From a bacterium (GTDB taxonomy: Bacteria; Hinthialibacterota; Hinthialibacteria; Hinthialibacterales; Hinthialibacteraceae), in contig CAXXSM010000089.1 of assembly GCA_963663405.2 (NCBI GenBank), forward strand, positions 29,113 to 93,112: a DNA stretch of 64,000 nucleotides, given 5' to 3'. The stretch's first letter is position 1. The number at the start of each line of letters is the position of its first letter. The notes beneath the pieces are model-generated. The model ran no database searches, was not told the DNA's origin, and saw only the letters and a list, made by a program, of their open reading frames with translations. Below, piece after piece: positions 881 to 64,000 of this stretch. The position numbers were made by a program, and so were the translations under genes.

Positions 881-3428
881 ATGATTGAAGCGTATCTGCA
901 GCACAAAGCCGAACGGGAAAAACTTGGTATCCCCCCGCTTCCCATCAACGCGGAACAGATGGAAGACCTTTGTAAATTACTCCAGAATCCTCCTTCCGGT
1001 CAGGAGGATTTTCTTCTGAGTTTATTAACAGACCGTGTCCCTCCCGGTGTCGACCCCGCCGCTGGAGTGAAAGCCGCGTTTCTCGCCCAAATCGCGAAAG
1101 GAGAGGTAAAGTCTCCTCTAATCGATTCCATCCGCGCCGTGGAACTGCTTGGCACAATGCTGGGTGGCTATAACATCGATCCGTTAATTGAGTTTCTCAG
1201 CGCTGACGCGCTTGCGGAAACCGCCGCGAAGGCGCTCTCCCAAACACTTCTGATCTTTGGCAATTTCGACACAGTGAAAGAACTGGCTGATAACGGAAAT
1301 CCTCACGCCAAGAGCGTTGTCGAATCGTGGATGGAAGCGGAATGGTTCCAGAAAAAACCAGCGCTGCCCGATCGAATGGAACTCACTGTCTTTAAAGTGG
1401 ATGGTGAGATCAACACCGACGATTTTTCTCCCGCCCTCCATGCGGCCACCCGGCCGGATATTCCGCTTCACGCGCTCGCGATGGGCGAATCCAGCTTCCC
1501 AGGCGGCATCGAGACGATCGCCGAATACCGGTCGCAAGGACGCCAAATCGCGTTTGTAGGAGACGTGGTCGGCACCGGCTCATCGAGAAAATCCGCTTGC
1601 AATTCTTTGATCTGGCATATTGGAGAGGATATCCCCTGCGTGCCGAATAAACGCCGGGGAGGCGTAATCATCGGCGGGCAAATCGCGCCGATCTTTTTCA
1701 ACACCGCCGAAGATTCCGGCGCGCTGCCGATTCGATGTGATGTCTCGAAACTCAACACGGGCGATCAAATTCACATACTTCCCAAAGAAGGGAAGATCAC
1801 AAATCCAAACGGGGAAACGCTGGCCGAATTTGAACTCTTCCCGAACACGATCGGGGATGAATACCGCGCTGGCGGGCGTGTCAATTTAATCATTGGACGT
1901 GATCTCACCAACAAAGCGCGCACATCCTGTGGAAAGGAAGAAAGCGAATTATTCGTCAAATCCGTCTTTGTCCAGAAAGAGGGCGTTGGATACACCTTGG
2001 CGCAGAAAATCATCGGCAAAGCCTGTGATGTGGAAGGAATCCACCCCGGTACCGCTTGCACGCCCCTCATGACAACCGTCGGTTCCCAAGATACGACCGG
2101 TCCCATGACCGCCGATGAATTGAAGGAACTCGCGTGTCTTAAATTCAACGCCGATCTGGTTATGCAGTCATTCTGCCATACCGCCGCCTACCCTAAAGCG
2201 GCGGATATTAAAACTCACGCCGAATTACCGAAGTTCTTCACCGAACGGGGCGGCGTCGCGCTTCAACCGGGCGATGGGATTATTCACAGCTGGTTGAACC
2301 GCATGATCCTTCCCGATACTGTCGGCACCGGCGGCGATTCGCATACCCGTTTCCCCCTCGGAATTTCGTTCCCCGCCGGATCGGGCCTAGTCGCGTTCGC
2401 GGCGGCGTTGGGAATGATGCCCCTTGAAGTTCCCAACTCTGTCCTGGTACGGTTCAAAGGGGAACTGCGTCCTGGAATCACGCTGAGAGACGTTGTCAAC
2501 GCGATCCCTTACCGGGCTATTCAAGAAGGCTTGTTGACAGTTGAGAAAAAAGGGAAGAAGAACATTTTCAACGGCCGCATCGTTGAGATGGAAGGGCTTC
2601 CCGATTTGAAATGTGAACAGGCGTTTGAATTGACCGACGCCACCGCCGAACGCAGCGCCGCGGGCAGCACGATCAAACTCGGTGTGGAAACCATCTCCGA
2701 ATACCTGCGCAGCAACGTCACATTATTAAAATCCATGATCGCGAAAGGCTACCAGAACGCCGAAACCATGAAACGGCGCATCGCGAAAATGGAGGAATGG
2801 CTGGCGAATCCTGTCCTAATGGAGCGCGATGGAAAACGCGGAATACGAAGCGATTCTCGACGTCGATCTGAATGAGATCACCGAACCCATCGTCGCATGT
2901 CCCAACGATCCGGATGATGTTAAACTCCTCTCTGAAGTGGCGGGCGACCCGGTTCAAGATGTGTTTATTGGCTCGTGCATGACAAACATCGGTCATTTCC
3001 GCGCGGCGGCGAGAATTCTGGAAGACGGCCCCCCCTGCCCACTGCGTCTTTGGGTCTGTCCACCAACACGCATGGACGAAGCCCAGCTGCGGGAAGAGGG
3101 AATCTATTCCACCTTCGGCAAAGTGAACGCGCGCATGGAAATGCCGGGCTGTTCACTCTGCATGGGGAATCAAGCGCGAGTCTTGGAAGGTTCGACGGTC
3201 TTCTCAACCTCCACCCGCAATTTCGACAACCGCATGGGCAAAAACGCCCGCGTCTACCTCGGCTCAGCCGAGCTCGCCGCGGTCACAGCCCAAATGGGCA
3301 AAATCCCCACACCGGCTGAATACATGAGCGCCGTCGTCGACAAAATCAAACCCGTTGAGGATGAACTGTATAGGTATTTGAATTTTGATGAGATTCCTAA
3401 ATATATTGAATTGGCGGATCGAGTGTAG
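881..3428 (+). CDS. acnB: Aconitate hydratase B, split by one indel near 2830 (ORFs 881-2875 and 2829-3428)
   Basis: [81 protein letters not shown]; AGGAG RBS. Confidence 0.96.
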
Positions 3429-3609
3429 GAGAAGGTAAATAGACAGAAGACTGACTCAAGCCAGTGAGGATAATATTTGCGGTGTTTTAAGGAAAGATCA
3501 CACAAAGGGAATATATGGCTGCATTAGTGGTCAACATAACAGGATATTCAACATGGCAAACATACAAAAGAAACATTCCAAAAAATGTTTGGGTGGCAAA
3601 GAAGAACAA

Positions 3610-4005
3610 ATGTCTGACTTTGCAAAAGCCTTTCTCGTCATTGGGGTACTCGGTCTTTTTGCTTGTCTTTTACTTTTAGGAAGAGAAGATGGATTGTTCC
3701 AATTTTGGATCGCCTTGGGTATCGGTTGTTTTATTCAGGGATTATTTTTTTTCATTATCTTAAGTTTTGGAGCGGAAATAATAAGACTTCTCAAAAAATT
3801 AAATGGGCTTCCTTTTGGAGGTGAAATTTCAGGAAAATTTATTACTTGTCACATTTTTCAATGTTCTGAGTGCAAAACACAAATTACAAAAGAAAAAGTG
3901 CCTTTATCTGATAAGGAAAGATGGCCTAGAAAATGTCAAAATTGCGGAGTCGAATTTGCCAAAGATGAAGAAGCTAACATCATTATTCTGGAAAAGGAAA
4001 AATAG
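3610..4005 (+). CDS. Hypothetical membrane protein with C-terminal zinc ribbon
   Basis: Two hydrophobic helices, then CSEC...CQNC; AT-rich; start could be 3553. Confidence 0.55.
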   Translation: MSDFAKAFLVIGVLGLFACLLLLGREDGLFQFWIALGIGCFIQGLFFFIILSFGAEIIRLLKKLNGLPFGGEISGKFITCHIFQCSECKTQITKEKVPLSDKERWPRKCQNCGVEFAKDEEANIIILEKEK

Positions 4006-4017
4006 TCATGTAGTTAT

Positions 4018-4096
4018 TAAAGGGTAGATCTCGCTTTACCGATCCATCATAATAATTGATTAATTCGGCGCTTCAGAAATACGCGATCCACCCTAA
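4018..4096. repeat. GTAG-type REP-like palindrome, family A
   Basis: AGGGTAGATCTCGCTTTACCGATCCA...CGCGATCCACCCT; related copies at 7878-7907 and 18015-18044. Confidence 0.6.
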
Positions 4097-4136
4097 GGCC
4101 TGATAGACTGAAGGAAAGGCCTTCGGCCTTGGATGT

Positions 4137-4284
4137 TTGTCTGAATTAGGATGGTCAGGATTGAAGGATGACCAGGATTTTTTTTTAATCCTTGATTCAA
4201 CGTTCCACTATTCAATAAGAAGAACAACGGAACTTAATGATATCCTGAATATCCTTTAATCTAGGCTATCCAGAATTCAGACAA
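4137..4284. repeat. ~150-bp MITE/REPIN-like element with terminal inverted repeats TTGTCTGAA...TTCAGACAA, copy 1
   Basis: Terminal IRs, 9-bp-periodic AGGAT/ATCCT subrepeats, core ATTCAATAAGAAGAA shared with 7696-7865. Confidence 0.8.
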
Positions 4285-4370
4285 TGATATAGTACTATAT
4301 CTATTGCTATTCCTTCATTGATAGCCACAGGAAAGATATAGCATAAAGAAAAACTCCCGGAGTTATCAGA

Positions 4371-5612
4371 ATGGCAACCATCGAAGGTATCTTTGTAAAA
4401 AACTATCGCGTTCTTAAACGTATAGAATTCGGTAAAAACAATATATCATTCTGTTGTAGAACCTTTAACATCACGTATCAGCAATTATAGGCAAAAATGG
4501 AGTTGGAAAGAGTACGCTTTTTGATGTATTTGGTTTCCTTTCTGATTGTATGGAAATGGGAGTAGAAGAAAAGCAAGTGAACTAAAAACGCGAGGTGGTT
4601 ATAGGCGACTTGTTTCAAATAATGAGATGAACAAAATCCATCTCGGAATTCGGTATCGCGAATCAGAAAAAACATTGCCTATAAACTATATATTGACTAT
4701 TAAATTAGACCAAGATGAAAGACCATATGTTGATTCGGAGCTATATATCAAATTGATTATATTAAGCCATTTGAAGAACAAGAAAGAGAACTCGATGATC
4801 AATAATGTAATTCTTGAACTCACAAAGGGTAAAGGCGCTGTTTCTTTTGGAGATTCAAATTCTTCAAAAGAAGATTTAGAAATAGAATTATCCGATATTC
4901 GACAATTAGGCATCTCTACATTAGGTTTATTAAAAGAACACCCACGAATTGTCAACTTTCGAAATTTTATACAAAACTGGTATCTTTCTTACTTCACCCC
5001 CAACGCGGCGCGAACACTCCCAATTAGCGGCCCCCTAAAAGCGTCTCAATCGAGAAGGTAGTAATCTGGGCAACGTCGTCCAATACATGGAACGCAATCA
5101 CCCAGACCGGTTTCAATCGATCCTTGACCGCATCGCGGAGCGTATTCCAGGCGTTCAAAAGATTCGGACGGTTGAATCGCCTGACGGGCGGCTGCTTCTG
5201 CAATTCAACGACCGGGGATTTCAAGATCCATTCTACGCGCAGCAGATGTCAGATGGCACATTGAAACTCTTCGCGTATCTTCTTCTGCTCGAAGCCCCCC
5301 GACCCTCCTTCCTTAATCTGTATCGAAGAGCCGGAAAATTATCTTTATCACAAACTGCTCGAAACATTGGCGCAGGAATTCAGGGAACACGCTTCGGAAA
5401 AGAAACAGACGTCTCAAATGATCGTGACAACCCATCAACCTTATTTTCGTAGACGCATTGACTCCAGAAGAGGTATGGATTTTAGAAAAAAGGAGAAGAT
5501 GGATTCGCCAAAATCCGTCGAGCGAGTGATGATCCCATTGTGAAAGCGATGGTAGAAGAAGGGCAACCGCTGGGGCAGTTTATGGTACAGCGATTATCTG
5601 GATAAGGAGTAA
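4371..5612 (+). CDS. AAA_21/AAA_15-type ABC ATPase, several indels
   Basis: Starts MATIEGIFVKNYRVLK; Walker A IGKNGVGKSTLFD (about 4487-4525); signature QMSDGTLKLFAYL; Walker B LCIEEPEN; H-loop IVTTHQP; ends LWYSDYLDKE*. Confidence 0.8.
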
Positions 5613-54244: not shown

Positions 54245-57022
54245 ATGTTAGATAAACGACTAATACATTCAATTAATAGTGGTCGTTGTTTCGTTCTCGT
54301 TGGATCAGGACCCTCCTGTGAAGTTGGATACCCCTCCTGGCACAGTCTTGCCTCACAAACTTATGAAACTCTCTTAGAGAGAGACTATAATTTAGATAAA
54401 AATTCATACAAAAAATATCTGGAGCAGAAGAAATATCCTGAGTTGTTTAGACAAGCGGAGTTAGATATTGGAGATCGCCAAAAACTGATTGATATCATTC
54501 AACAACATCTAAATCCATCAACCAAAAAAAATAGTTTTCTTTATGAACTAATTTGTACATGGCCTTTCGCCTGCTATCTCACAACAAACTATGATGATGA
54601 AATAGCCTTATATCTCAATAAAAAATATGAGCATTTCGAAGTCATTAGAAATAGAAAAAGTGATTTCTCTTTATTGCGGGATGGTGCTAATCACCTTATT
54701 CAAAAGATACATTCAGACCTCAATCACATCGATGAGGTAGTCCTTACGTCTTCCGATTACCAACTCTTTTATGTAGAGGATGCTGGGCAATATTTCCGCG
54801 ATAAACTTCGCCAAGTATTTGAAATGTTTAATTTCTTCATTATTGGTCATAGTTTATCAGATCCTGATATCGAATACGTTTTGCAACTGGCACGTAAAAC
54901 AGCAAGTCCACAACATCCTATATACATGGCCGCTGCAGATTACACAAATGCAGATGAACGAGAATATCTCGAGAAATACAATATCGTTCTTGTACGATAT
55001 TCGAACAGTGATGGTACACACTCTGAACTTCAACGAATGCTCAAAGCTACTGATCGATTCATTGTATCACGGAGTCGTCGTAAAGAGAGAGGAGAAATAA
55101 AAACAAGGTCCAAAGAAGAGTTAGAAACCACTACCGCATTGTATCTTTATAGACGGCTTAATGAAATACAGGATACAGATAACCTATCACCACTCATTCT
55201 TACTGATCTCTTTTTTGTTAATGACAAAGAAATGTCAAAAGAAGAGATAGTTTCTCTTCCAACATTGAAAAAGTTCTCCGTAACAAAAAATGCTATAGAT
55301 GCTATAGATGAATCCTTGCATTCTCTTGTAAGACAAGGCTTAGTGATCGAATCAAATGGAAGATTCTTGGTTAGTAAAAGCGGCCAAGAACGAGTCAAAG
55401 AATGTCAAACAGTCAGGGAAACGGAAAAGGATAAAGCCTTTGGTCAGTTCTGTCTAAATTTAAAGAGTAGTTATATCGGTATAACTGACAAACAGTTGGA
55501 TAAATGTAGGAAATTGGCCGAAAAGGTCATAGTCGCCAGTTTCGATAGTCGGGGTTTGACTATAGCCAACCAAGTTTTTGCTGGTCAATCCGCGAGTTAT
55601 GAAGAATTATCTGACATATTTGGCTATGTTTCTGACATTGCACGTGAACTCGATGGAATGGAACTTAAAGCCGCATTTGTGGAAGCAATGCATACATTTT
55701 TGGTTGAGCCAAACCATCCACAGAGAGAATATCTCGCTTCAGTCTCTCAAGGTTTTTTTCTTTATCACCTTCTTGGACTTGATCCGAAATGTATACAGTT
55801 GCGTCGGGATATATTTAATAAAACACTTTGGCTCTTTGATTCAAGTGTTCTCTTGCCCTTTTTAGCAGTAGGTTGTCATAACTATGACTATGCTTCTGAA
55901 CTATTTAAGATGCTCACTGACGCAAAAGCCGTACTGTATACAACACCCAATCTTCTTAAAGAGGCGTGGGATCATTTTCGATGGGCTTCGGATTTCATGA
56001 ATACATATGATGTAAGATCATCAGCGTTTCTTCAAGCAACGCTTGTGAAGGGAAGTTATAAACAAAACCTCTTTCTTGATGGTTATATAAGACTCAGCGC
56101 AGAAGGTCGGGTTGGATCATTTAAGGATTATCTCGAATTGATTTTTCCACAAGGAAAAGACCAATCTTCTTTTGAAGCGTACATTACACAGGCTGGATTG
56201 CGTGTTATAAATGTCTCCGACATAGATGGATTTATTGAAGAGGACTGGGGAGAAATTGAAGAGGCGAAGACCAAAATCAAGAATCATCGTGAGGAACAAG
56301 GTACTTTTCGTACTAAACATCAAGTCTTAGCAGAAGCTGAAGTTTGGATCTTTTTAAAAAATCTTCGTTCCGGAAAGTATTCGTTATCTAACTGTGATGA
56401 TGAGATTGAAAGATTTTATTTCGTATCACAAAGCCGAATCTTGGATCGGGAATTCCAACCGAGAGATGTTTCGACATGGACACCAGAAGCTCTATTTAGA
56501 TATGTGACAGCTCTACCAGGAAAGCAAACAAATCCTGATTTGCTTCAACAATGTATGCTCCATGAATATTATTACGCGGGTATCTCATTTATTGATAAGG
56601 AACGTTATATTCGCTTTTTCGGTCCAAGCATAAATACTGCCAAGATATCCTATGAACAAGAGAAAACTAAATATATTTCTGAAATTGAAAAAAATCATGC
56701 CGGAAATCTTGATGAAGTATTCAATAATACTCCAGATCTCGACAAGCCATTCTTTGTAGCACAAATGGGATGGAAAATTGCAGAGAAATCCAAACGTAGT
56801 GAAGAATTTGCCAAAAAACGAGAGCAGGATGCTAAACGTCGAGCTGAGTTAGCGGAAGCAAGGGTTAAGCAACTTGAATTAGAAAAAGACGAAGCTTGGA
56901 AAAAACGGGAAAAAAGAAAACAAGAACAAGAAGTTTCAAGATTGCAAAACCTTCAAGATCCTAAACATATACGCAAACGTAAGAAGCAAGCGAAGAAGCG
57001 TAGCAAACAAAAACGAAAATGA
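54245..57022 (+). CDS. SIR2-like (SIR2_2) domain protein fused to wHTH and PIN-like domains
   Basis: VGSGPS..GYPSW, LTTNYD, KIH, IGHSLSDPD; LVRQGLV...FLVSKSG wing; LFDSSVLLP...YTTPNLLKE; AT-rich. Confidence 0.8.
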   Translation: MLDKRLIHSINSGRCFVLVGSGPSCEVGYPSWHSLASQTYETLLERDYNLDKNSYKKYLEQKKYPELFRQAELDIGDRQKLIDIIQQHLNPSTKKNSFLYELICTWPFACYLTTNYDDEIALYLNKKYEHFEVIRNRKSDFSLLRDGANHLIQKIHSDLNHIDEVVLTSSDYQLFYVEDAGQYFRDKLRQVFEMFNFFIIGHSLSDPDIEYVLQLARKTASPQHPIYMAAADYTNADEREYLEKYNIVLVRYSNSDGTHSELQRMLKATDRFIVSRSRRKERGEIKTRSKEELETTTALYLYRRLNEIQDTDNLSPLILTDLFFVNDKEMSKEEIVSLPTLKKFSVTKNAIDAIDESLHSLVRQGLVIESNGRFLVSKSGQERVKECQTVRETEKDKAFGQFCLNLKSSYIGITDKQLDKCRKLAEKVIVASFDSRGLTIANQVFAGQSASYEELSDIFGYVSDIARELDGMELKAAFVEAMHTFLVEPNHPQREYLASVSQGFFLYHLLGLDPKCIQLRRDIFNKTLWLFDSSVLLPFLAVGCHNYDYASELFKMLTDAKAVLYTTPNLLKEAWDHFRWASDFMNTYDVRSSAFLQATLVKGSYKQNLFLDGYIRLSAEGRVGSFKDYLELIFPQGKDQSSFEAYITQAGLRVINVSDIDGFIEEDWGEIEEAKTKIKNHREEQGTFRTKHQVLAEAEVWIFLKNLRSGKYSLSNCDDEIERFYFVSQSRILDREFQPRDVSTWTPEALFRYVTALPGKQTNPDLLQQCMLHEYYYAGISFIDKERYIRFFGPSINTAKISYEQEKTKYISEIEKNHAGNLDEVFNNTPDLDKPFFVAQMGWKIAEKSKRSEEFAKKREQDAKRRAELAEARVKQLELEKDEAWKKREKRKQEQEVSRLQNLQDPKHIRKRKKQAKKRSKQKRK

Positions 57023-57891: not shown

Positions 57892-58068
57892 ATGCGGGTA
57901 ATTCCAATGGAGCGCGGGCGTCCCGCCCGTGAAAGAGTGAGATTCCTATCACCCGCAAAAAAAAGACTTGAAAGCAATCTCATTTTCATGCAATACTTAT
58001 TCAAGCCGAGTCTAAAACGAACGGTATCTTGTTAGAGTTCTCAATCATCCACAATTGTGGGGGAAACC

Positions 58069-58725
58069 ATGAAGACCAACGCTTTTACCTTGATTGAATT
58101 GCTTATCGTTGTCGCGATTATCGGTATCCTGGCGGCGATCGCGGTTCCAAACTTTATGAACGCGCGTATCCGGGCCAACGCCGCGAAATCATTTTCAGAT
58201 ATCCGGATGCTGTTCGAACTCAATATCACGCGCAAGCTGGATACGAATCTCTGGATGCCGGATGGAAATGACAAAGGCTGGACCAATCACAACGGTGAGG
58301 TGTCACCGGACGATGTCTGCGCGTTGGATCATTTCGGACCACGGTGGGGCAGAACCTGCGCCGACGCGGGTTTGGATCCATGCTACGATCCATATCATGA
58401 TGGGCGTGTGTTGTCTCAACTGACCACACCGGTTTCCTATATGAACAGCATCCCCGTCGATCCCTTCTTGAACGGGCTTTTCGTAGCCTATGGCACGAGT
58501 GGATGCCCGAACAACGCGGGTTATTACTGGGTATTCATGGCGGGCGGGCCGGACCGGGATAACTACGATATCGCCTGGTCGACCGCGAGTTCCTCCATCC
58601 CCTACGTCCCATCGAATGGCCTGATTTCAAATGGAGATATCTGGAAATCGTACCGGCTCAATGAAAGCACGGACACATACGATTGGAAGATCGCTTTTGG
58701 ACAATACCCCGATTCATTTTTTTAG
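58069..58725 (+). CDS. Prepilin-type protein, paralog 4
   Basis: A|FTLIELLIVVAIIGILAAIAVPNF; LTTPVSY, DPF, GPDRD, YVPSNGLISNGDIW. Confidence 0.9.
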   Translation: MKTNAFTLIELLIVVAIIGILAAIAVPNFMNARIRANAAKSFSDIRMLFELNITRKLDTNLWMPDGNDKGWTNHNGEVSPDDVCALDHFGPRWGRTCADAGLDPCYDPYHDGRVLSQLTTPVSYMNSIPVDPFLNGLFVAYGTSGCPNNAGYYWVFMAGGPDRDNYDIAWSTASSSIPYVPSNGLISNGDIWKSYRLNESTDTYDWKIAFGQYPDSFF

Positions 58726-58756
58726 GGAAGATAAAATTTGGAAGAAAAAAGAAAAA

Positions 58757-58829
58757 TGGAGCGCATGGGACTTGAACCCACGACCCCTACCTTGCGAAGG
58801 TAGTGCTCTCCCAGCTGAGCTAGCGCCCC
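58757..58829 (-). tRNA. tRNA-Ala(CGC), CCA not encoded
   Basis: GGGGCGC/GCGCTCC acceptor with G3:U70; anticodon arm CTACC-TTCGCAA-GGTAG; GGTTCAAGTCC T-arm. Confidence 0.96.
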
Positions 58830-58910
58830 AATGGTGTTTACAATCACTATCATCATCATGCGGAAGATATTTTAAAGCCTGCTCGATATCCGCATGACTA
58901 CAGAAATTAA

Positions 58911-58938: not shown

Positions 58939-59043
58939 ACCCCCATCAAGCCTGATCGGAATAAAATCATGCGTTCTAAGCATTCGAGGGTTAAAAGAGA
59001 CCGTGATCGCGTTATAATATAAAATCAACTAAAATCAACCGAT

Positions 59044-59117
<74 letters not shown>

Positions 59118-59166
59118 TATTGATTTTACTGGACTTACATTTGTGTCCTGAAAACCAAAAACTCCA

Positions 59167-59188
59167 TTGTCTGATTTTTGTCTGATTT
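59167..59188. repeat. Tandem 11-bp direct repeat, putative integrase arm-type sites
   Basis: TTGTCTGATTT twice, between tRNA and excisionase. Confidence 0.5.
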
Positions 59189-59195
59189 TTTGTTT

Positions 59196-59432
59196 TTAAA
59201 AAATCGGGTTTTCTGTATTGGAATCAATCCACTTCTCTAATTTTTTTCTATTAAACCGAATTAACCGGCCCACTCGAAAATGCGGAATCACGCTGGCTCG
59301 CACTAAATCACGCAGCTGACGAGATGTCGTATTGAGGTATCGCGCCGCTTGCTCAATGTTCATGTTAAGCGGTACTTCTTCTTCGTGACACACGGGGCGT
59401 AAATCCGATTTTTTCTCTGATGGACTTGTCAT
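59196..59432 (-). CDS. Excisionase-family (HTH_17) DNA-binding protein
   Basis: MNIEQAARYLNTTSRQLRDLV...IPHFRVGRLIRFNRKKLEKWI. Confidence 0.88.
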   Translation of the reverse strand: MTSPSEKKSDLRPVCHEEEVPLNMNIEQAARYLNTTSRQLRDLVRASVIPHFRVGRLIRFNRKKLEKWIDSNTENPIF

Positions 59433-59532
59433 TGTATTTCTTCTTTATACCGAAGATCCAGTGAACTTTTTATGGTATTCCGGTTGGTATCGTGACCGGC
59501 GAAGATTCACCGGCCAACATACAAATCGGAAA

Positions 59533-59835
59533 TCAATCTGACAGGGTTTTGTTTGGAAGCGCCGCGCCTTCTTCTTTGAGAGTGGTCCGGCGGCCAGGCT
59601 TCTTGTTTTGATCCACCCCCGCGAAAACAATCAATCCTTCGCGGCTGACTGCCTCATTCCCAAACGCGATGTGAAAACTATCCGGTAATTGATCGCCAGA
59701 TACCAGATAGAGATCCACCTCCTCTTTTTTGAGGGTTTTTAAGACCGTTGGATTTAGTGAGGTTTTGTAATAAACCTCTCCTTCCTTCCCATTCTTTTTC
59801 TCACAGACGGCGATGATCTTTCGCGCATTGTTCAT
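59533..59835 (-). CDS. Hypothetical protein (3' end may be frameshifted)
   Basis: 100-aa ORF with AAAGGA RBS, co-oriented in the island operon. Confidence 0.55.
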   Translation of the reverse strand: MNNARKIIAVCEKKNGKEGEVYYKTSLNPTVLKTLKKEEVDLYLVSGDQLPDSFHIAFGNEAVSREGLIVFAGVDQNKKPGRRTTLKEEGAALPNKTLSD

Positions 59836-60016
59836 GGTTGATGTCCTTTCTTTTTTTATCTTTGGCCATGATTGATCTCAATTCTTTAAAACCTATCGAG
59901 TCAATCAGGCGTTTGGACTGGGTTGTGAATTCGGTGGCTTGTTGTGGGCCAACTGCGTTTTCACTTTGTTCTGTTTTTTTCGATCCAATTTCGCTCCTTT
60001 TTCACCGGAACGGTGA

Positions 60017-60646
60017 TTAAAGATTCTTGAAAAATGAAAGTTGATTGGGTGAGAACTGGTTCGTAATGGACGTGGATAACACGTGTGGATTGAGAGACCG
60101 GGCTTTGTCGTAATACTCTCTGGCTTTATATCGCTCGCCGCACATCAACGCGCAGACGGCCATATACATAAATGTCTTTTCCCGATCGGTTTGATTGAGG
60201 TGGGTTTCTTCGATGTCAGAGAAAACATTAAACGCTAATTGGAACTGCGATTTTTCATAAATCTCGATTCCTCTTCTCATCAGTTGACCAGCCTTTTTGT
60301 TCAATAATAGGATATCTTTTTTTTGTTTCTCTGTGTTTTGAGAGGAAGACTTTGATGAAGAAGACCTTGAATCGCTTCCTGTGTTTCTGATTTCTTGAGG
60401 CTGTCTGGTTATTAAAGAGTAGCCAGCCGTTTTCATAATTGGTTTCGGGGTTGGTGTGGGGCGCTTGACCGGCGTATAACGCGTCTGCGTATTATATGAT
60501 GTTTTGGTGGGAGTGGGTTTTGGCCCTGTGCCCAGTATATCATCCAGAGCGACTCCCAAAGGTGTGAACACACCTGTTGTGGAACAGGCGGAAAATGCGA
60601 TCACAATGAATACACTCAATCCAATCATGGCGAATAAATTTTTCAT
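60017..60646 (-). CDS. Lipoprotein with Pro/Thr/Ser-rich linker and C-terminal TPR
   Basis: Lipobox FSAC; PKPTPTK linker; AREYYDKARSLNP; ATGA overlap with upstream gene. Confidence 0.75.
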   Translation of the reverse strand: MKNLFAMIGLSVFIVIAFSACSTTGVFTPLGVALDDILGTGPKPTPTKTSYNTQTRYTPVKRPTPTPKPIMKTAGYSLITRQPQEIRNTGSDSRSSSSKSSSQNTEKQKKDILLLNKKAGQLMRRGIEIYEKSQFQLAFNVFSDIEETHLNQTDREKTFMYMAVCALMCGERYKAREYYDKARSLNPHVLSTSITNQFSPNQLSFFKNL

Positions 60647-61632
60647 GGCGATATCCTTTCGAAGGTAATTGTGAAATTCAAATCCTTAACTCGAACAACT
60701 GACCGGCGGTTTTCCTGCACCGTTACCTCGGGAACACGAAACGGGTGGGGATTCATATCGAAAATCAAACTGTATTCACCGGGAGAAACTCGAATGGGAT
60801 CCACCATCGGCGCAGTGGTTTTGATGATTTTTCTGTTGACGACGCCATTTTTGTAAATGGTGACTACCGACCAGGGAGTTGGATTCTGTTCTTTTGAAAA
60901 ATGAGCGTACACAATCAACTCTCCTTTTCCCGTTCGAATTCTTCGATCCGGTTCCCTTGGTGAATCGATTCTGTTGGATTCATAGGAACTGGATTGTCTC
61001 GCATGTCGATTCGGTTTCTCACTGGTGCAAGAACGTGATGAAAGCAAGAAAGAACAGAGGATGGTCATTACGAATCCACCAACGATTGCGGCGCTGATTT
61101 GAGGATAGATCGCCCAGAATCGTTGGCCGGTTTCATACAATCGTTTCCCAAACTCATATAGTTGGATCGCATATGAACCCATCTGTTGAAGAAAAGATCC
61201 AAACTTTTTGATCCATTGATTTATCGTGGAAAAAAATTCATAGACCTGGGCCGGATCCCAACTTGCGGGTTTCGTTTTTACGGGTTTGGGAGAGGACGCT
61301 TTGGGCGCTGATGGGGAGCCCGTATACCGGAAAATGGAAGGATTATTATTGATCCAGTCGAAATGCTCGTTAAGAATGGCCCGGCATTGATTCATTTCTT
61401 GGATGAAGGCGTTGAATTGATCCCGATCCCGATTCACATTCGTGAAAGTCGCGTTGGCTTCATTAATTTTTTTTTGAAAGCGGCTCGTGATCGCTGACAG
61501 ATCCAATGGTAAATCCTGGCGTGTAAAGCCAAATACGCTCAAGGCTTTTCGCATAGCCGCTTTCGGATCTCCGCCACGCATTATCGATCTCCCGTTCGTT
61601 GGAATAGGGGGGGGAACTTTGTTCCCCCCCAT
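60643..61632 (-). CDS. J-like domain (no HPD) - linker - TM helix - PEGA-like domain
   Basis: ALSVFGF...LSAITSRFQKK...FIQEMNQCRAIL follows the J-domain helix pattern; TM ISAAIVGGFVMTILCSFLL; GELIV...PWSVV...VSPGEY. Confidence 0.6.
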   Translation of the reverse strand: MGGNKVPPPIPTNGRSIMRGGDPKAAMRKALSVFGFTRQDLPLDLSAITSRFQKKINEANATFTNVNRDRDQFNAFIQEMNQCRAILNEHFDWINNNPSIFRYTGSPSAPKASSPKPVKTKPASWDPAQVYEFFSTINQWIKKFGSFLQQMGSYAIQLYEFGKRLYETGQRFWAIYPQISAAIVGGFVMTILCSFLLSSRSCTSEKPNRHARQSSSYESNRIDSPREPDRRIRTGKGELIVYAHFSKEQNPTPWSVVTIYKNGVVNRKIIKTTAPMVDPIRVSPGEYSLIFDMNPHPFRVPEVTVQENRRSVVRVKDLNFTITFERISP

Positions 61633-61647
61633 CCCACTGTCACTAAC

Positions 61648-63191
61648 TCAACTATCCGATTGTTCTTCGTATTGCACGGAGATTTCGAATTCCGTCTGGC
61701 CATCACCCATCAAATCACGCCCTAAGACTTTAAGGATGATTTGCTCGTCTACTTCCATGCTGATTTCGACCTGTTCTTGGAGGTTGGGATTATCCGGATT
61801 CAATTTGATTCTCGATTGCCCGATTTTATCATCCGGGGAAAACAGCGTGTCCGGTTTGCCTTTAGTGATTTGAATCAACGCTTGTTGTTGGTTTCGACTT
61901 TTTGGGGCGAAGCGGCCCATCATGGCTTTCGTGGGAATCCGCGTTCCTTTCGGAATAATAAGTGAGTTATACAGCTGATCGCCGCCATGGCAGGCGGCGA
62001 CACATAAATCATGCGGCAGTATTTTCCAGATTTTGATATCGGGAAGATACCGTGTTTCTGAAAACTGGTTTCCTGTTTCGTTCTGTTTTTGAATCGACGA
62101 GAGACAGTTTCCTTGTACCACATCAAATTGTGGATCGCTGGAAATCATAATCTCTGTGGTGGGAAAATGGGATTCAATCGTGGATTGAACCATCTCCGTT
62201 TGAGACGATCCCCCTGTTAAAAAGACGTAATCGATCTGCTCCTTATCCAAATTCGCTTCCTGAAGGGTTTGATCGATGCTGGTTACCACCTTTTCCATTA
62301 ATTCTTTTCCCAGTCGATTGAATTCTTCGCGGGTGAGTTGAAATGTGGTGTAGTTTTTCCCGTCCCAAACCGGAATAACCGCCGTATCGGATTCAGACAA
62401 GGAATGTTTGGCGGACTCAGCGTTGATAAATAACTGGGAAAGAACCACAGGATCGGTGGGTAAAACGCCACCAAACGATCGATCTTTTACCAACGATACG
62501 ATCAACTGGTTAATATCATGACCCGCCACATCGCAGGCGCGCGTGGCCTTGATTTCAAACTCATTTTCCGCTTCGTTCTTTTTGACAATGGAGATATCCG
62601 TAGTTCCACCCCCGTTGTCAAAAACGAGCCCGATCCCGGCTAACGGGGCTTGGGTTACCAGATTTTTGAGCGCCTGGTTAGGTTCATTATCCAAGCCACA
62701 CAAGTTGATCCCGGCGTCTTTAACCGCCTGGCGCCACAACGCATGTTCCCCGCGCGTCGAAATTCGCCGGACAGGAAGCGAATACAGGTAAATCCTGAAT
62801 GGGGAACTGGACAAACTCAGACGCCCTTTTTAAAGACGTATTCAAAAAAACGTGTTAACATCTGAAGAGGAGTCACCGGTTTTCCATCGACATATAAACA
62901 CGCGCTCTCGCGTTCACTCAATTGATCTTTGCCGATGGAATACACACTCTCTTTCCCCTCAATAGCCAGATTCAACGCCTTTTGGCCGAATACCAAGCCT
63001 TCTTCCGGGGAGATCCCGACCCGGCTTGGGAAGGTCCGCGAACCATCAATCGGCACAACTCGTTTTTCCAGTTTGCCGTCTTGGATGCGGGCCAGCATGA
63101 TCGTTGTGGAATGATTCCCGCCATCAAATCCCACAAACACACGAATGGTCGATTGTAAACTCGTTTCGTTTAAATTCCTGGATTGCGTCAA
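61648..63191 (-). CDS. Divergent Hsp70-family protein lacking the helical lid (two indels near 62750-62830)
   Basis: GFDGGNHST, TFPS, corrected frame SCPANFD, NEP, VFDNGGGTTD, AESAKHSLS, LTGGSS, IIPKGTRIP. Confidence 0.88.
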
Positions 63192-63743
63192 GCTTGATGA
63201 TCTTCGTTTTCATCTTCTTCTTTCTCCTTTGTCTTAGGTTCGGTGGCGACAACCACCCCCCGCCGGTCTGATCAGACGGTCATTGATCCGAATTCCATAA
63301 AAAACGAAATTGGCGATCGTTCCTGGCGCTTTCTTGGAGTCGGCCGAAACCGCCTTCAGCATGGATTGCCAGGAGGGATCGAACGGTTCACCCACCAATT
63401 CGTCCGAGCCAAGCACTTCACATCCGAGGCGATTCATGATTTCAAGAAGAGTCACATGAATGGCCAGGTATTCATTCCGTTTTTTGGATTGCCGCGAGAT
63501 CAGGTCGAGTTTCTGTTTGAGGCTCGAACTCAACGCGCATAAGAGATTCACGGCAAGGATCTGGTTGGAACAGGCGAAAAGATCGTCTCGGAACCGATTC
63601 ACGGTTTCGAAATCAGTTTTCATCTCCTCCCATAAGACCGGATCGGACTTTTGAAGTGAATACAATTTCTCCAGAGTGGTATTGATTTTTTGGAGAAGCG
63701 GTTCCAATTGCTGGTAAAACTGGGTTTGTTCCTGTTTTGTCAT
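63188..63743 (-). CDS. Divergent GrpE-like nucleotide exchange factor (one indel in a G tract near 63260)
   Basis: N-terminal helix; VGEPFDP, GTI, GIRINDRLIRPA; removing one G gives GVVVA and a stop overlapping the Hsp70 TTG; GGAGG RBS. Confidence 0.8.
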
Positions 63744-64000
63744 GTTTTTTACCTCCACTTTTTTCTATATAGGAAAAATTCCATAGGTAAGAAAAAAATT
63801 ACTTGTTAAGCCTTTTTTCCCTGGATTCATCCCAATAGTTCCTTCTCTAAAAAAAATAAATATTGGTAAAAAAGCTTTGAGAGAGGAAATTTTTTTGGGA
63901 GGTTCGCTTTGTGAGATTGGATTTGGAGGGATAAAAAAAGATCAATTTTTTCTAAGAGGACTAATTTTTACAATATATACCCATATAAGGGGACTGAATG

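Follow-up and report, generated by a model that had tools for sequence, protein, structure and literature searches.

A 64,000-nucleotide stretch of DNA from a bacterium of the phylum Hinthialibacterota (the window; G000:C89:29113-93112, with the contig ending at window base 64000) carries, close to that contig end, four consecutive genes for a GrpE-like nucleotide-exchange factor, a divergent Hsp70 that lacks the helical lid, a membrane protein with a probable J-like domain and a lipoprotein (Table 1). These genes make up a real, conserved, mobile and very divergent Hsp70 system whose function is experimentally approachable. The module is carried by a small mobile element that integrates at tRNA genes. 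Our best explanation, which we put forward tentatively, is that the four genes form a self-contained membrane-tethered Hsp70 cycle that is the core of a small family of tRNA-integrating elements and serves an envelope-associated step of the element. A preliminary description of this stretch, made from its letters, had proposed a system of the same four parts.

The GrpE-like protein and the Hsp70

The 174-aa piece of the GrpE-like protein scored 35.1 bits against Pfam GrpE (PF01025; cut-off 25.8), with residues 12-166 aligned to positions 10-159 of the 165-position profile, which bears out the divergent GrpE of the preliminary description. Its homologue at locus L084 scored 23.3 bits, just under the Pfam cut-off. 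The Hsp70 is spread over pieces of 124 and 388 aa, the larger of which scored 100.7 bits against Pfam HSP70 (PF00012; cut-off 20.6; profile positions 149-501 of 599). The same piece lies far below the NCBIfam cut-offs for DnaK, with 101 bits against 648 for PRK00290 and 96.8 against 822.55 for TIGR02350, and an intact 536-aa homologue scored only 63.6 and 61 bits with these two models. The scores were 99.3 bits against a cut-off of 708.55 for HscA (TIGR01991) and 42 against 331 for the YegD type (PRK11678); because the beta subdomain of the substrate-binding domain (SBD-beta) is present, the protein does not consist of the nucleotide-binding domain (NBD) only.

We aligned the family to DnaK and inspected residues that are functionally important according to the DnaK literature. 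Equivalents of D8, K70, E171, D194, T199 and D201 are kept in every family row that covers those columns. The T11-T12-N13 stretch of DnaK reads N-S/G/H-x in the family, the equivalent of R167 is absent from all six Hsp70 rows that cover the column (G, G, D, C, G, G), and the VLLLD linker is replaced by a V-x-V-type linker that follows an insert of about 10 residues. The motifs GFDGGNHST and NEPNQA, singled out in the preliminary description, are present in the sequence. Intact family members measure 508-556 aa, and all six members end at the equivalents of DnaK residues 505-513 (about 513 for the window protein), so that the helical lid is missing, as had been proposed. The GrpE/Hsp70 pair is translationally coupled through its gene overlap and, judged from these alignments, has a plausible active site.

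To place the Hsp70 we used a tree of 64 rows, comprising the 388-aa window piece, five relatives, DnaK, HscA, HscC and YegD of E. coli, four paralogues from this genome and 50 further hits, the latter being every second of 99 hits of 450-700 aa among 143, with the other hits left out. In this quick search with long branches, the family forms a clade of its own with a Shimodaira-Hasegawa-like approximate likelihood-ratio test (SH-aLRT) value of 99 and a stem of 1.39 changes per column. The DnaK and HscA of E. coli group with the housekeeping DnaK of contig C76, away from the family; HscC groups with a paralogue of this genome on contig C129 (SH-aLRT 96), and YegD is the most distant row. A constraint that joins the family with HscC, a group chosen once the tree was known, lowers the log-likelihood by 32.4 units, and the approximately unbiased (AU) test does not reject it (p-AU 0.068). 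On this evidence the Hsp70 is a very divergent family in its own long-branched clade, for which a link to HscC is not rejected. The comparison with DnaK, HscA, HscC and YegD suggested in the preliminary description thus leaves the family outside all four in the free tree, with the AU result on HscC as a caveat. The housekeeping grpE-dnaK genes stand separately on contig C76 (896.8 and 164.4 bits), in agreement with the earlier view that the module is not the housekeeping or heat-shock operon.

In the window the first two genes are interrupted by frame breaks. We compared positions 59000-64000 with contigs, not raw reads, from three public runs (X1, X2 and X3) of two studies, at a contig depth of 2-5. 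One-base excesses were found at 63256, 63130, 62824 and 62748, all of them in C-runs of the plus strand. A probable fifth lies at 61607, where the shorter run is common to X3 and to the second copy of the module in this genome; with the shorter run, the third gene loses an in-frame start further upstream. X1 and X2 are each one base shorter at 62748, 62824 and 63130, and X1 is so at 63256 as well, where the X2 contig ends. Elsewhere X2 is letter-identical to the window over the aligned pieces (0 other letters), and X1, which comes from another study, shows a few substitutions. The excess at 63256 breaks the frame of grpE, and those at 63130, 62824 and 62748 divide hsp70 over four frames. In tblastn, where three frames were hit, hsp70 is colinear with the intact relatives P0006 and P0007, and in-silico removal of the four bases gave a single Hsp70 frame of 533 codons, which aligns without a break to residues 10-522 of P0006 (35%) and 6-525 of P0007 (34%). 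The N-terminus of the read-through protein (MKTKII..IQEFKRNEF..) agrees with those of its relatives. When the copies in this genome are compared, 6 synonymous changes and 1 nonsynonymous change separate the Hsp70 parts, a ratio of nonsynonymous to synonymous changes per site (pN/pS) of 0.04, and 6 of each kind separate the J-like genes, with 3.5 times as many nonsynonymous sites (pN/pS 0.29); the counts are small in both cases.

The frameshifts are very probably assembly errors. It is very unlikely that they are real and that the copy in the source strain is a dead, decaying set of pseudogenes, a reading that would draw on four frame breaks inside 0.5 kb of window sequence, on a related copy (G012:C1) that is truly broken by a transposase insertion, and on the low depth of the comparison contigs, which leaves room for a real variant in the source strain. 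All four breaks consist of one extra base in a C-run, the extra base is missing from X2 at the three sites it spans and from X1 at all four, its removal restores frames colinear with intact homologues, and other long genes nearby, such as a 925-aa open reading frame (ORF), are intact. Pseudogenes, which would have spoken against the preliminary description, were thus not confirmed, given the X1 and X2 contigs, the read-through and the pN/pS values. That description had expected indels and counted three, having overlooked the break at 63130. The five probable one-base over-calls in C-runs fall inside 1.7 kb (window 61600-63260), and the local assembly seems poor where two element copies compete.

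With the frames restored, the layout of the operon could be redrawn. The ATG of grpE at 63743 sits 8 nt past a GGAGG; read through, the gene counts 189 codons from a GTG at 63758, its frame ends with NEDHQA and its stop is the TGA at 63190-63188. Once the excess at 63130 is removed, hsp70 starts at the ATG at 63213 and overlaps grpE by about 26 nt, which replaces the TTGA overlap proposed previously; the overlaps at this junction in homologous loci are 29 nt and 4 nt. The ATGA overlap between the stop of the J-like gene and the start of the lipoprotein gene, at 60643-60646, was confirmed. The J-like protein starts at 61581 (MRGGDPK) and not at 61632, the in-frame upstream stretch being absent from the second copy and from run X3. 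The heat-shock element CIRCE, which had been reported as not visible upstream, gave 0 matches when up to 3 mismatches were allowed across the window, and a scan of promoters and terminators found no more than chance would give (7 promoter-like sites, with 7.7 expected; 9 terminator-like sites, with 6.9 expected). Among the sequencing runs listed for the stretch there was none of RNA.

The membrane protein with a probable J-like domain, and the lipoprotein

The 312-aa product of the third gene matched no Pfam family, including PEGA and DnaJ (PF00226; none at E ≤ 1), and the GrpE-like, J-like and lipoprotein products are all without a match in PADLOC or PHROGs. A full-length AF2 model, computed from an alignment of 6 sequences with a predicted local distance difference test (pLDDT) score of 70.8, consists of helices at residues 6-17, 28-48 and 53-79, a long helix at 110-181, a disordered linker and a beta-sandwich at 220-309. 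There is only one hydrophobic segment, at the end of the long helix (residues 162-182; hydropathy maximum 2.3 over 19 residues from residue 162), in line with the single transmembrane helix of the preliminary description.

When the N-terminal 89 residues were folded alone with AF2, the model reached a pLDDT of 82.6 and a predicted TM-score (pTM) of 0.71, with helices at 6-17, 28-48, 53-79 and 81-84. Among 48,161 chains, the top two structural matches were Tim16 (2guz_B, Z 6.5, root-mean-square deviation (rmsd) 3.6, 64 of 65 residues aligned) and the J domain of HscB (1fpo_A, Z 6.5, 74 aligned), and J or J-like domains occupy 7 of the 50 structural rows listed. An Atlas feature search, used as a lead only, returned DnaJ-domain clusters at 0.77 and 0.75. 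From these models we consider the N-terminal domain probably a J-like domain. The HPD motif is absent from all 6 aligned homologues; the four closest have T-N/T-V-N-R in the loop, and T-N-V-N-R occupies the HPD position in the hhalign alignment. In canonical systems, the pair of the J-domain HPD and DnaK R167 matters for stimulation of the ATPase. The joint loss of the HPD and of the R167 equivalent would fit a co-evolved, non-canonical interface.

The C-terminal sandwich is transthyretin-like according to structure comparison with VIA-align, which ranked the extracellular domain of PepT2 (5a9h_A, Z 9.3, rmsd 1.9, 83 aligned) ahead of transthyretin (4pwe_B, Z 8.9) and of TssJ of the type VI secretion system (T6SS; Z 6.8); the best Foldseek match reached E 1.8e-3, with none at E ≤ 0.001. 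The PEGA domain belongs to the transthyretin clan in Pfam. The PEGA-like outer domain named previously is accordingly kept as a transthyretin-like sandwich, and its PEGA label found no Pfam match.

The hydrophobic N-terminus of the lipoprotein ends in F-S-A-C21, and Cys21 is invariant in 4 of 4 homologues. A Thr-, Ser- and Pro-rich linker of 84 residues leads from it to a helical C-domain of about 100 residues. One repeat was recognised in this domain, below the cut-offs of TPR_2 (19.7 bits against 27; E 8.6e-4) and TPR_1 (17.9 against 27.8), and weak matches to TPR proteins were found for Ycf3 (4.9e-4), YbgF (0.018) and BamD (0.028). These matches suggest TPR-like as the best name for the C-domain, a weakly supported one. 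Of the TPR lipoprotein that had been proposed, the lipoprotein stands, by its signal peptide and invariant Cys21, and the TPR assignment stays under the cut-off. Identification with the TssQ family of T6SS lipoproteins, an Atlas lead at 0.94, was not confirmed by NCBIfam.

Recurrence, mobility and neighbouring genes

We looked for the module in the 35 species genomes of the phylum in the collection. The Hsp70 was found at E ≤ 1e-30 in 4 of them, this one included, and the full-length J-like protein in the same 4, with two further genomes matching its C-terminal domain only. The order GrpE-Hsp70-J-like-lipoprotein is kept in all six copies (two here, and G019:C155, G012:C8, G012:C1 and G003:C8), and the GrpE gene is coupled to the Hsp70 gene in every copy that covers that end. 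Beyond the phylum, an exhaustive profile-free search of 1.84 billion representatives returned 8 proteins at E ≤ 1e-30, query included, and the five intact relatives are each a singleton cluster. In a word-indexed protein search no hit exceeded 30% identity, and a profile search with the J-like protein found its own cluster and the G012 copy only. Among the matches listed from contig scans there were only distant Hsp70s, at no fewer than 74 loci in genome_contigs, at least 80 in metagenome_contigs and 4 in viral_contigs; the best whole-length matches listed in the three scans were 21-25% identical.

The second copy in this genome, on contig C45, is 97.6% identical to that of the window over 3,232 bases and is cut inside the Hsp70 by the contig end. 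The window copy begins right after a tRNA-Arg(TCT) and the C45 copy right after a tRNA-Pro(TGG), and the flanks on the far side of the two tRNAs are unrelated. In the window, a gene for an excisionase-type helix-turn-helix (HTH) protein adjoins the tRNA, and its near-identical homologue at L084 matches Pfam HTH_17 at 1e-12. Matches to Phage_integrase were found at L085, L086 and L083, with up to 109 bits. Overall, every copy is accompanied by an excisionase, integrase or tRNA gene, and tRNA genes adjoin four copies (tRNA-Arg, two different tRNA-Pro, and tRNA-Lys), among them tRNA-Pro-GGG and tRNA-Lys-CTT at related loci. Within the window itself no integrase is visible, and no direct repeat of the attachment (att) type was found in L084. 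At G012:C1 (L086, 9429-13367) a gene for a Transposase_29 protein of 663 aa interrupts the Hsp70. The conserved four-gene neighbourhood and its link to mobile elements, both foreseen in the preliminary description, are thus borne out by six copies, two of them beside different tRNAs in one genome, and by relatives with integrases and excisionases.

At three related loci, a cluster stands back to back with grpE that encodes an ORF of 154-189 aa without a family, a P-loop ATPase of 657-687 aa and two small membrane proteins. The ATPase scored 25.2 bits against DUF87 (cut-off 23.2) and matched PADLOC mad8 at 1.5e-14 (residues 96-434 on positions 4-297 of 314), with weak matches to CedD, TraD, TrbC and HerA and a tail that is winged-helix and YraN-like. 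In this genome, the C-terminus of the ATPase and two small membrane ORFs lie at the end of contig C81, on which the window element probably continues. An FtsK/HerA-like ATPase adjoins the module in 5 of 6 copies, the window copy being counted by inference across the contig end. As the contig stops at 64000, this neighbour was out of view for the preliminary description. The ATPase occurs in 5 of the 35 genomes, including all 4 carriers of the module; the fifth, G004, has a truncated ATPase and an excisionase, and the module is absent from it.

Several other observations were made around the insertion sites. The short repeat GTCTGATTTTT occurs twice at window positions ~59165-59195, between the tRNA end and the excisionase gene, and its complement occurs in tandem in the G012 element (L084:13729-13781); these repeats are probably binding sites of a recombinase or excisionase. 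Just before the insertion site, the window encodes a 222-aa protein with a prepilin-type N-terminal cleavage/methylation motif (58057-58725, plus strand) and a tRNA-Ala(CGC) (58756-58830, minus strand). Further away, at 54245-57022 on the plus strand, lies the gene for the 925-aa protein, which is SIR2-like at its N-terminus and matches PADLOC ThsA (8.3e-23) and LmuA (1.3e-17); with a local GC content as low as 0.38 and the tRNA pair about 2 kb away, it is probably a separate defence gene. On another element, L084 encodes a group II intron reverse transcriptase (3298-4560).

Table 1. Features of the module and its flank, in window coordinates.
Feature	Position	Strand	Basis or remark
Five ORF pieces	63758..60017	-	ORF list
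GrpE-like nucleotide-exchange factor	63188..63743	-	Pfam GrpE; ATG 63743
Divergent lidless Hsp70 (NBD + SBD-beta)	61648..63213	-	Pfam HSP70; ~520 aa once read through from ATG 63213
Probable J-like three-helix domain, HPD absent, predicted cytoplasmic	61327..61581	-	Residues 1-85 of the 312-aa membrane protein
Single transmembrane helix (residues 162-182)	61036..61098	-	Hydropathy maximum
Transthyretin-like beta-sandwich, C-terminal (residues 218-312), predicted periplasmic	60646..60930	-	Structure comparison
Lipoprotein, 209 aa	60017..60646	-	Signal peptide, Cys21, linker, TPR-like C-domain
100-aa ORF, kept in the second copy	59533..59835	-	ORF list; no PADLOC/PHROGs family match
Excisionase-type HTH protein	59196..59432	-	PHROG excisionase families, e.g. 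phrog_66 5.5e-8
tRNA-Arg(TCT)	59043..59118	+	ARAGORN; element starts directly past its 3' end

Related systems and possible functions

The four genes resemble several known Hsp70 systems in part. With the canonical DnaK-DnaJ-GrpE machine they share the actin-like ATPase core, the SBD-beta, a GrpE partner and the equivalents of the catalytic residues, and they differ from it by scores far under the DnaK cut-off, by the missing lid, by the altered phosphate-1 loop and linker and by the lack of a CIRCE element. Like the mitochondrial import motor (mtHsp70, Mge1, Tim14/Pam18 and Tim16/Pam16), the module combines an Hsp70 with a GrpE-type factor and a membrane-anchored J or J-like protein. Tim16 has no HPD and regulates Tim14. 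The N-terminal domain studied here likewise lacks the HPD, and its best structural match is Tim16, at a middling Z of 6.5. Unlike in the mitochondrial motor, no translocon, HPD-bearing J partner or client is known here, and mtHsp70 has a lid and canonical motifs, so that we speak of analogy and not of membership.

The closest parallel named in the preliminary description was HscC of E. coli. Its locus (K-12 676000-690000, L173) reads ybeQ-ybeR-djlB-ybeT-ybeU-djlC-hscC, with Sel1-repeat genes interleaved, and DjlB and DjlC each begin with a J domain that has HPE at the signature position and are anchored by their C-terminus. Both systems place a specialised Hsp70 beside membrane-anchored J-type co-chaperones and helical-repeat proteins, and in both the J or J-like domains depart from HPD. 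In the passage of Mayer 2021 that treats it, HscC has a shortened lid and 550-580 aa and is thought to work without GrpE, whereas the present family has no lid and a GrpE of its own. In DjlB and DjlC a large cytoplasmic domain is held by a tail anchor, whereas the membrane protein here crosses to a beta-sandwich; the E. coli hscC locus is chromosomal, whereas the module lies on a mobile element; and HscC is placed elsewhere in the free tree, though a joint clade is not rejected. Two more modules of J-protein, GrpE and Hsp70 genes, with zinc-ribbon or TPR partners, lie at G000:C129:30834-34202 and G000:C165:4816-10661. The C129 Hsp70 is the one that groups with HscC, yet a GrpE gene adjoins it, which is at odds with a GrpE-free view of HscC types. 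The preliminary description had set its analogue apart as having no dedicated GrpE, which agrees with the passage of Mayer 2021 and does not hold for the HscC-like Hsp70 of this genome.

Other likenesses come from conflict systems. The text of Kaur et al. 2020 (PMC7159879) describes GAP1-N2 GTPase systems, mainly in actinobacteria and firmicutes, in which an HSP70 and a GrpE occur with an FNIII protein that carries a DnaJ or TPR fusion. Like these, the present genes form a patchy mobile cluster with a non-housekeeping HSP70 and GrpE, a J-type protein, a TPR and a beta-rich domain. Unlike in the systems of that text, a comparison of 20 neighbouring proteins with Pfam gave no GTPase, tubulin or FNIII at these loci, the upstream side of the window being cut by the contig end. 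Compared by text description, our module may overlap with a minor variant of the systems of Kaur et al. 2020. A passage of FEBS J 2026 (PMC13580251) calls attention to unexplored DnaK derivatives whose lid is shortened or missing, and a passage of PMC12642450 describes a lidless DnaK-like domain in EACC1-protease modules with about 50% identity to DnaK. The present family shares with the derivatives in these passages the descent from DnaK as paralogues and the deletion of the lid; unlike the EACC1 domain as given there, it falls far under the DnaK model cut-off. A dedicated GrpE, a J-like membrane protein, a lipoprotein and carriage by an integrative element are not mentioned in the passages of PMC13580251 and PMC12642450. 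The gene set as a whole is undescribed in the literature on Hsp70 systems that we surveyed, supplements and the figures of Kaur et al. 2020 excepted.

Because the module is core to the small elements and stands back to back with the ATPase cluster, our tentative choice is an envelope-associated step of the element. The bitopic inner-membrane protein would hold its J-like head in the cytoplasm and dock the Hsp70 at the membrane; with the Hsp70 docked there, ATP-driven binding and release of a client would take place at that site. The dedicated GrpE would imply a real nucleotide cycle, and the transthyretin-like domain and TPR-like lipoprotein would extend the assembly into the periplasm. Synteny suggests that the client may be part of the element itself, in which case the module could assemble or drive the envelope-associated DNA-handling apparatus of the FtsK/HerA-like ATPase during transfer or establishment of the element. 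The preliminary description had suggested an ATP-driven switch or pulling motor coupled to an extracytoplasmic sensor, with defence, entry exclusion or element transfer as examples of its role; such a device would likewise be a conjecture drawn from domain layout and synteny.

A number of points weigh against this reading. The sample is small, and the six copies, from four related genomes, are not independent. For the J-like domain, unrelated helical rows reached Z 6.3 and 6.0, barely under the 6.5 of Tim16 and HscB; there was no Foldseek match at E ≤ 0.001 and no match to Pfam DnaJ, and hhalign against four E. coli J domains gave a probability of 5% (E 0.008), with the alignment in J register. 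What remains of the J-like domain of the preliminary description is a modestly supported fold, in which the HPD is missing and which the profiles do not recognise. In a protein pair that lacks both the HPD and the R167 equivalent, canonical J-domain stimulation of the ATPase is not to be assumed, and the changes at T11-T12-N13 and VLLLD may mean that allosteric coupling is altered or lost. The topology, with a cytoplasmic head and a periplasmic sandwich, is one that we infer. As for the neighbourhood, G019 has a truncated ATPase and, directly upstream of grpE, an archaeo-eukaryotic primase (AEP; AEP-TOTE, 3.6e-35); the ATPase also resembles mad8, a component of MADS defence; and because no relaxase, type IV secretion system or capsid gene was recognised in the elements, a transfer apparatus is a guess.

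The likeness to mad8 leads to a reading that we hold to be somewhat unlikely, namely that the module is defence or conflict cargo in which the periplasmic domain and the lipoprotein sense envelope damage or phage and the J-like protein, Hsp70 and GrpE act as an ATP-dependent threshold switch. The effector would be the HerA-like ATPase with its nuclease-like tail or another partner, and entry exclusion against related elements would be an alternative form. Defence cargo is common on small integrative elements. There is a SIR2/ThsA-like gene within 2 kb of the insertion site, but it is outside the element, beyond the tRNA. Parallels can be drawn to MAD7-MAD8, an ATPase-nuclease module needed for MADS defence in the passage of PMC13662399 that describes it, to the conflict systems combining HSP70, GrpE and a DnaJ- or TPR-fused protein in the text of Kaur et al. 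2020 (PMC7159879), and to defence modules of the protease-effector type to which a lidless DnaK-like domain is fused, in the text of PMC12642450. At the loci themselves, however, no GTPase, effector-associated domain (EAD), protease or other recognised effector was found, and PADLOC gave no match for the four proteins except a weak one of an Hsp70 piece to PDC-M61B (5.8e-6). The module is moreover present in every copy and makes up a large share of small elements, so that it behaves as core and not as variable cargo.

Two readings would give the module a chaperone task of a more familiar kind. Phage lambda and the plasmids P1 and F use the host's DnaK-DnaJ-GrpE, whose role in replicon activation is established, and the module could likewise be a private chaperone set, localised at the membrane, for replication or recombination proteins of the element. 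The primase of G019 and a small downstream ORF weakly like SSB and phage replication-initiation proteins (7.8e-6 and 1.9e-5) point that way. We think this improbable: the primase is found at 1 of 6 copies only, the SSB-like ORF is absent from the window copy, the host already has a canonical DnaK and GrpE, and the conserved periplasmic domain and lipoprotein would be left unexplained. We also give little weight to an accessory proteostasis or envelope-stress island that would add chaperone capacity for membrane proteins or lipoproteins. Its model would be HscC with the membrane-anchored DjlB and DjlC, proposed as membrane-protein chaperones in a passage of Mayer 2021; the AU test does not reject the HscC clade (p 0.068), and the two further J-GrpE-Hsp70 modules make Hsp70 expansion a habit of the organism. 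The module is found inside mobile elements only, in 4 of the 35 genomes, and its extreme divergence (stem 1.39) and altered J interface argue for one dedicated client.

A bolder reading, which we hold to be highly improbable, makes the module a bacterial counterpart of the mitochondrial import motor, joining a membrane-docked Hsp70/GrpE ratchet to an FtsK/HerA-type ATPase. As the element enters or leaves the cell, this ratchet would draw a protein, or DNA capped by a protein, through the inner membrane, and the sandwich domain and lipoprotein would be the outer part of the conduit. If true, horizontal DNA transfer would gain a new minimal route, and bacteria their first translocation device driven by an Hsp70.

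The module brings together, in a context that is compact and uncommonly complete, an Hsp70 with its own exchange factor, a J-like anchor, a periplasmic domain and a lipoprotein on a small element found at several tRNA genes. It offers a testable system for how an Hsp70 is recruited without the canonical J interface, for the role of a lidless Hsp70, and for why a mobile element pays for a chaperone cycle.

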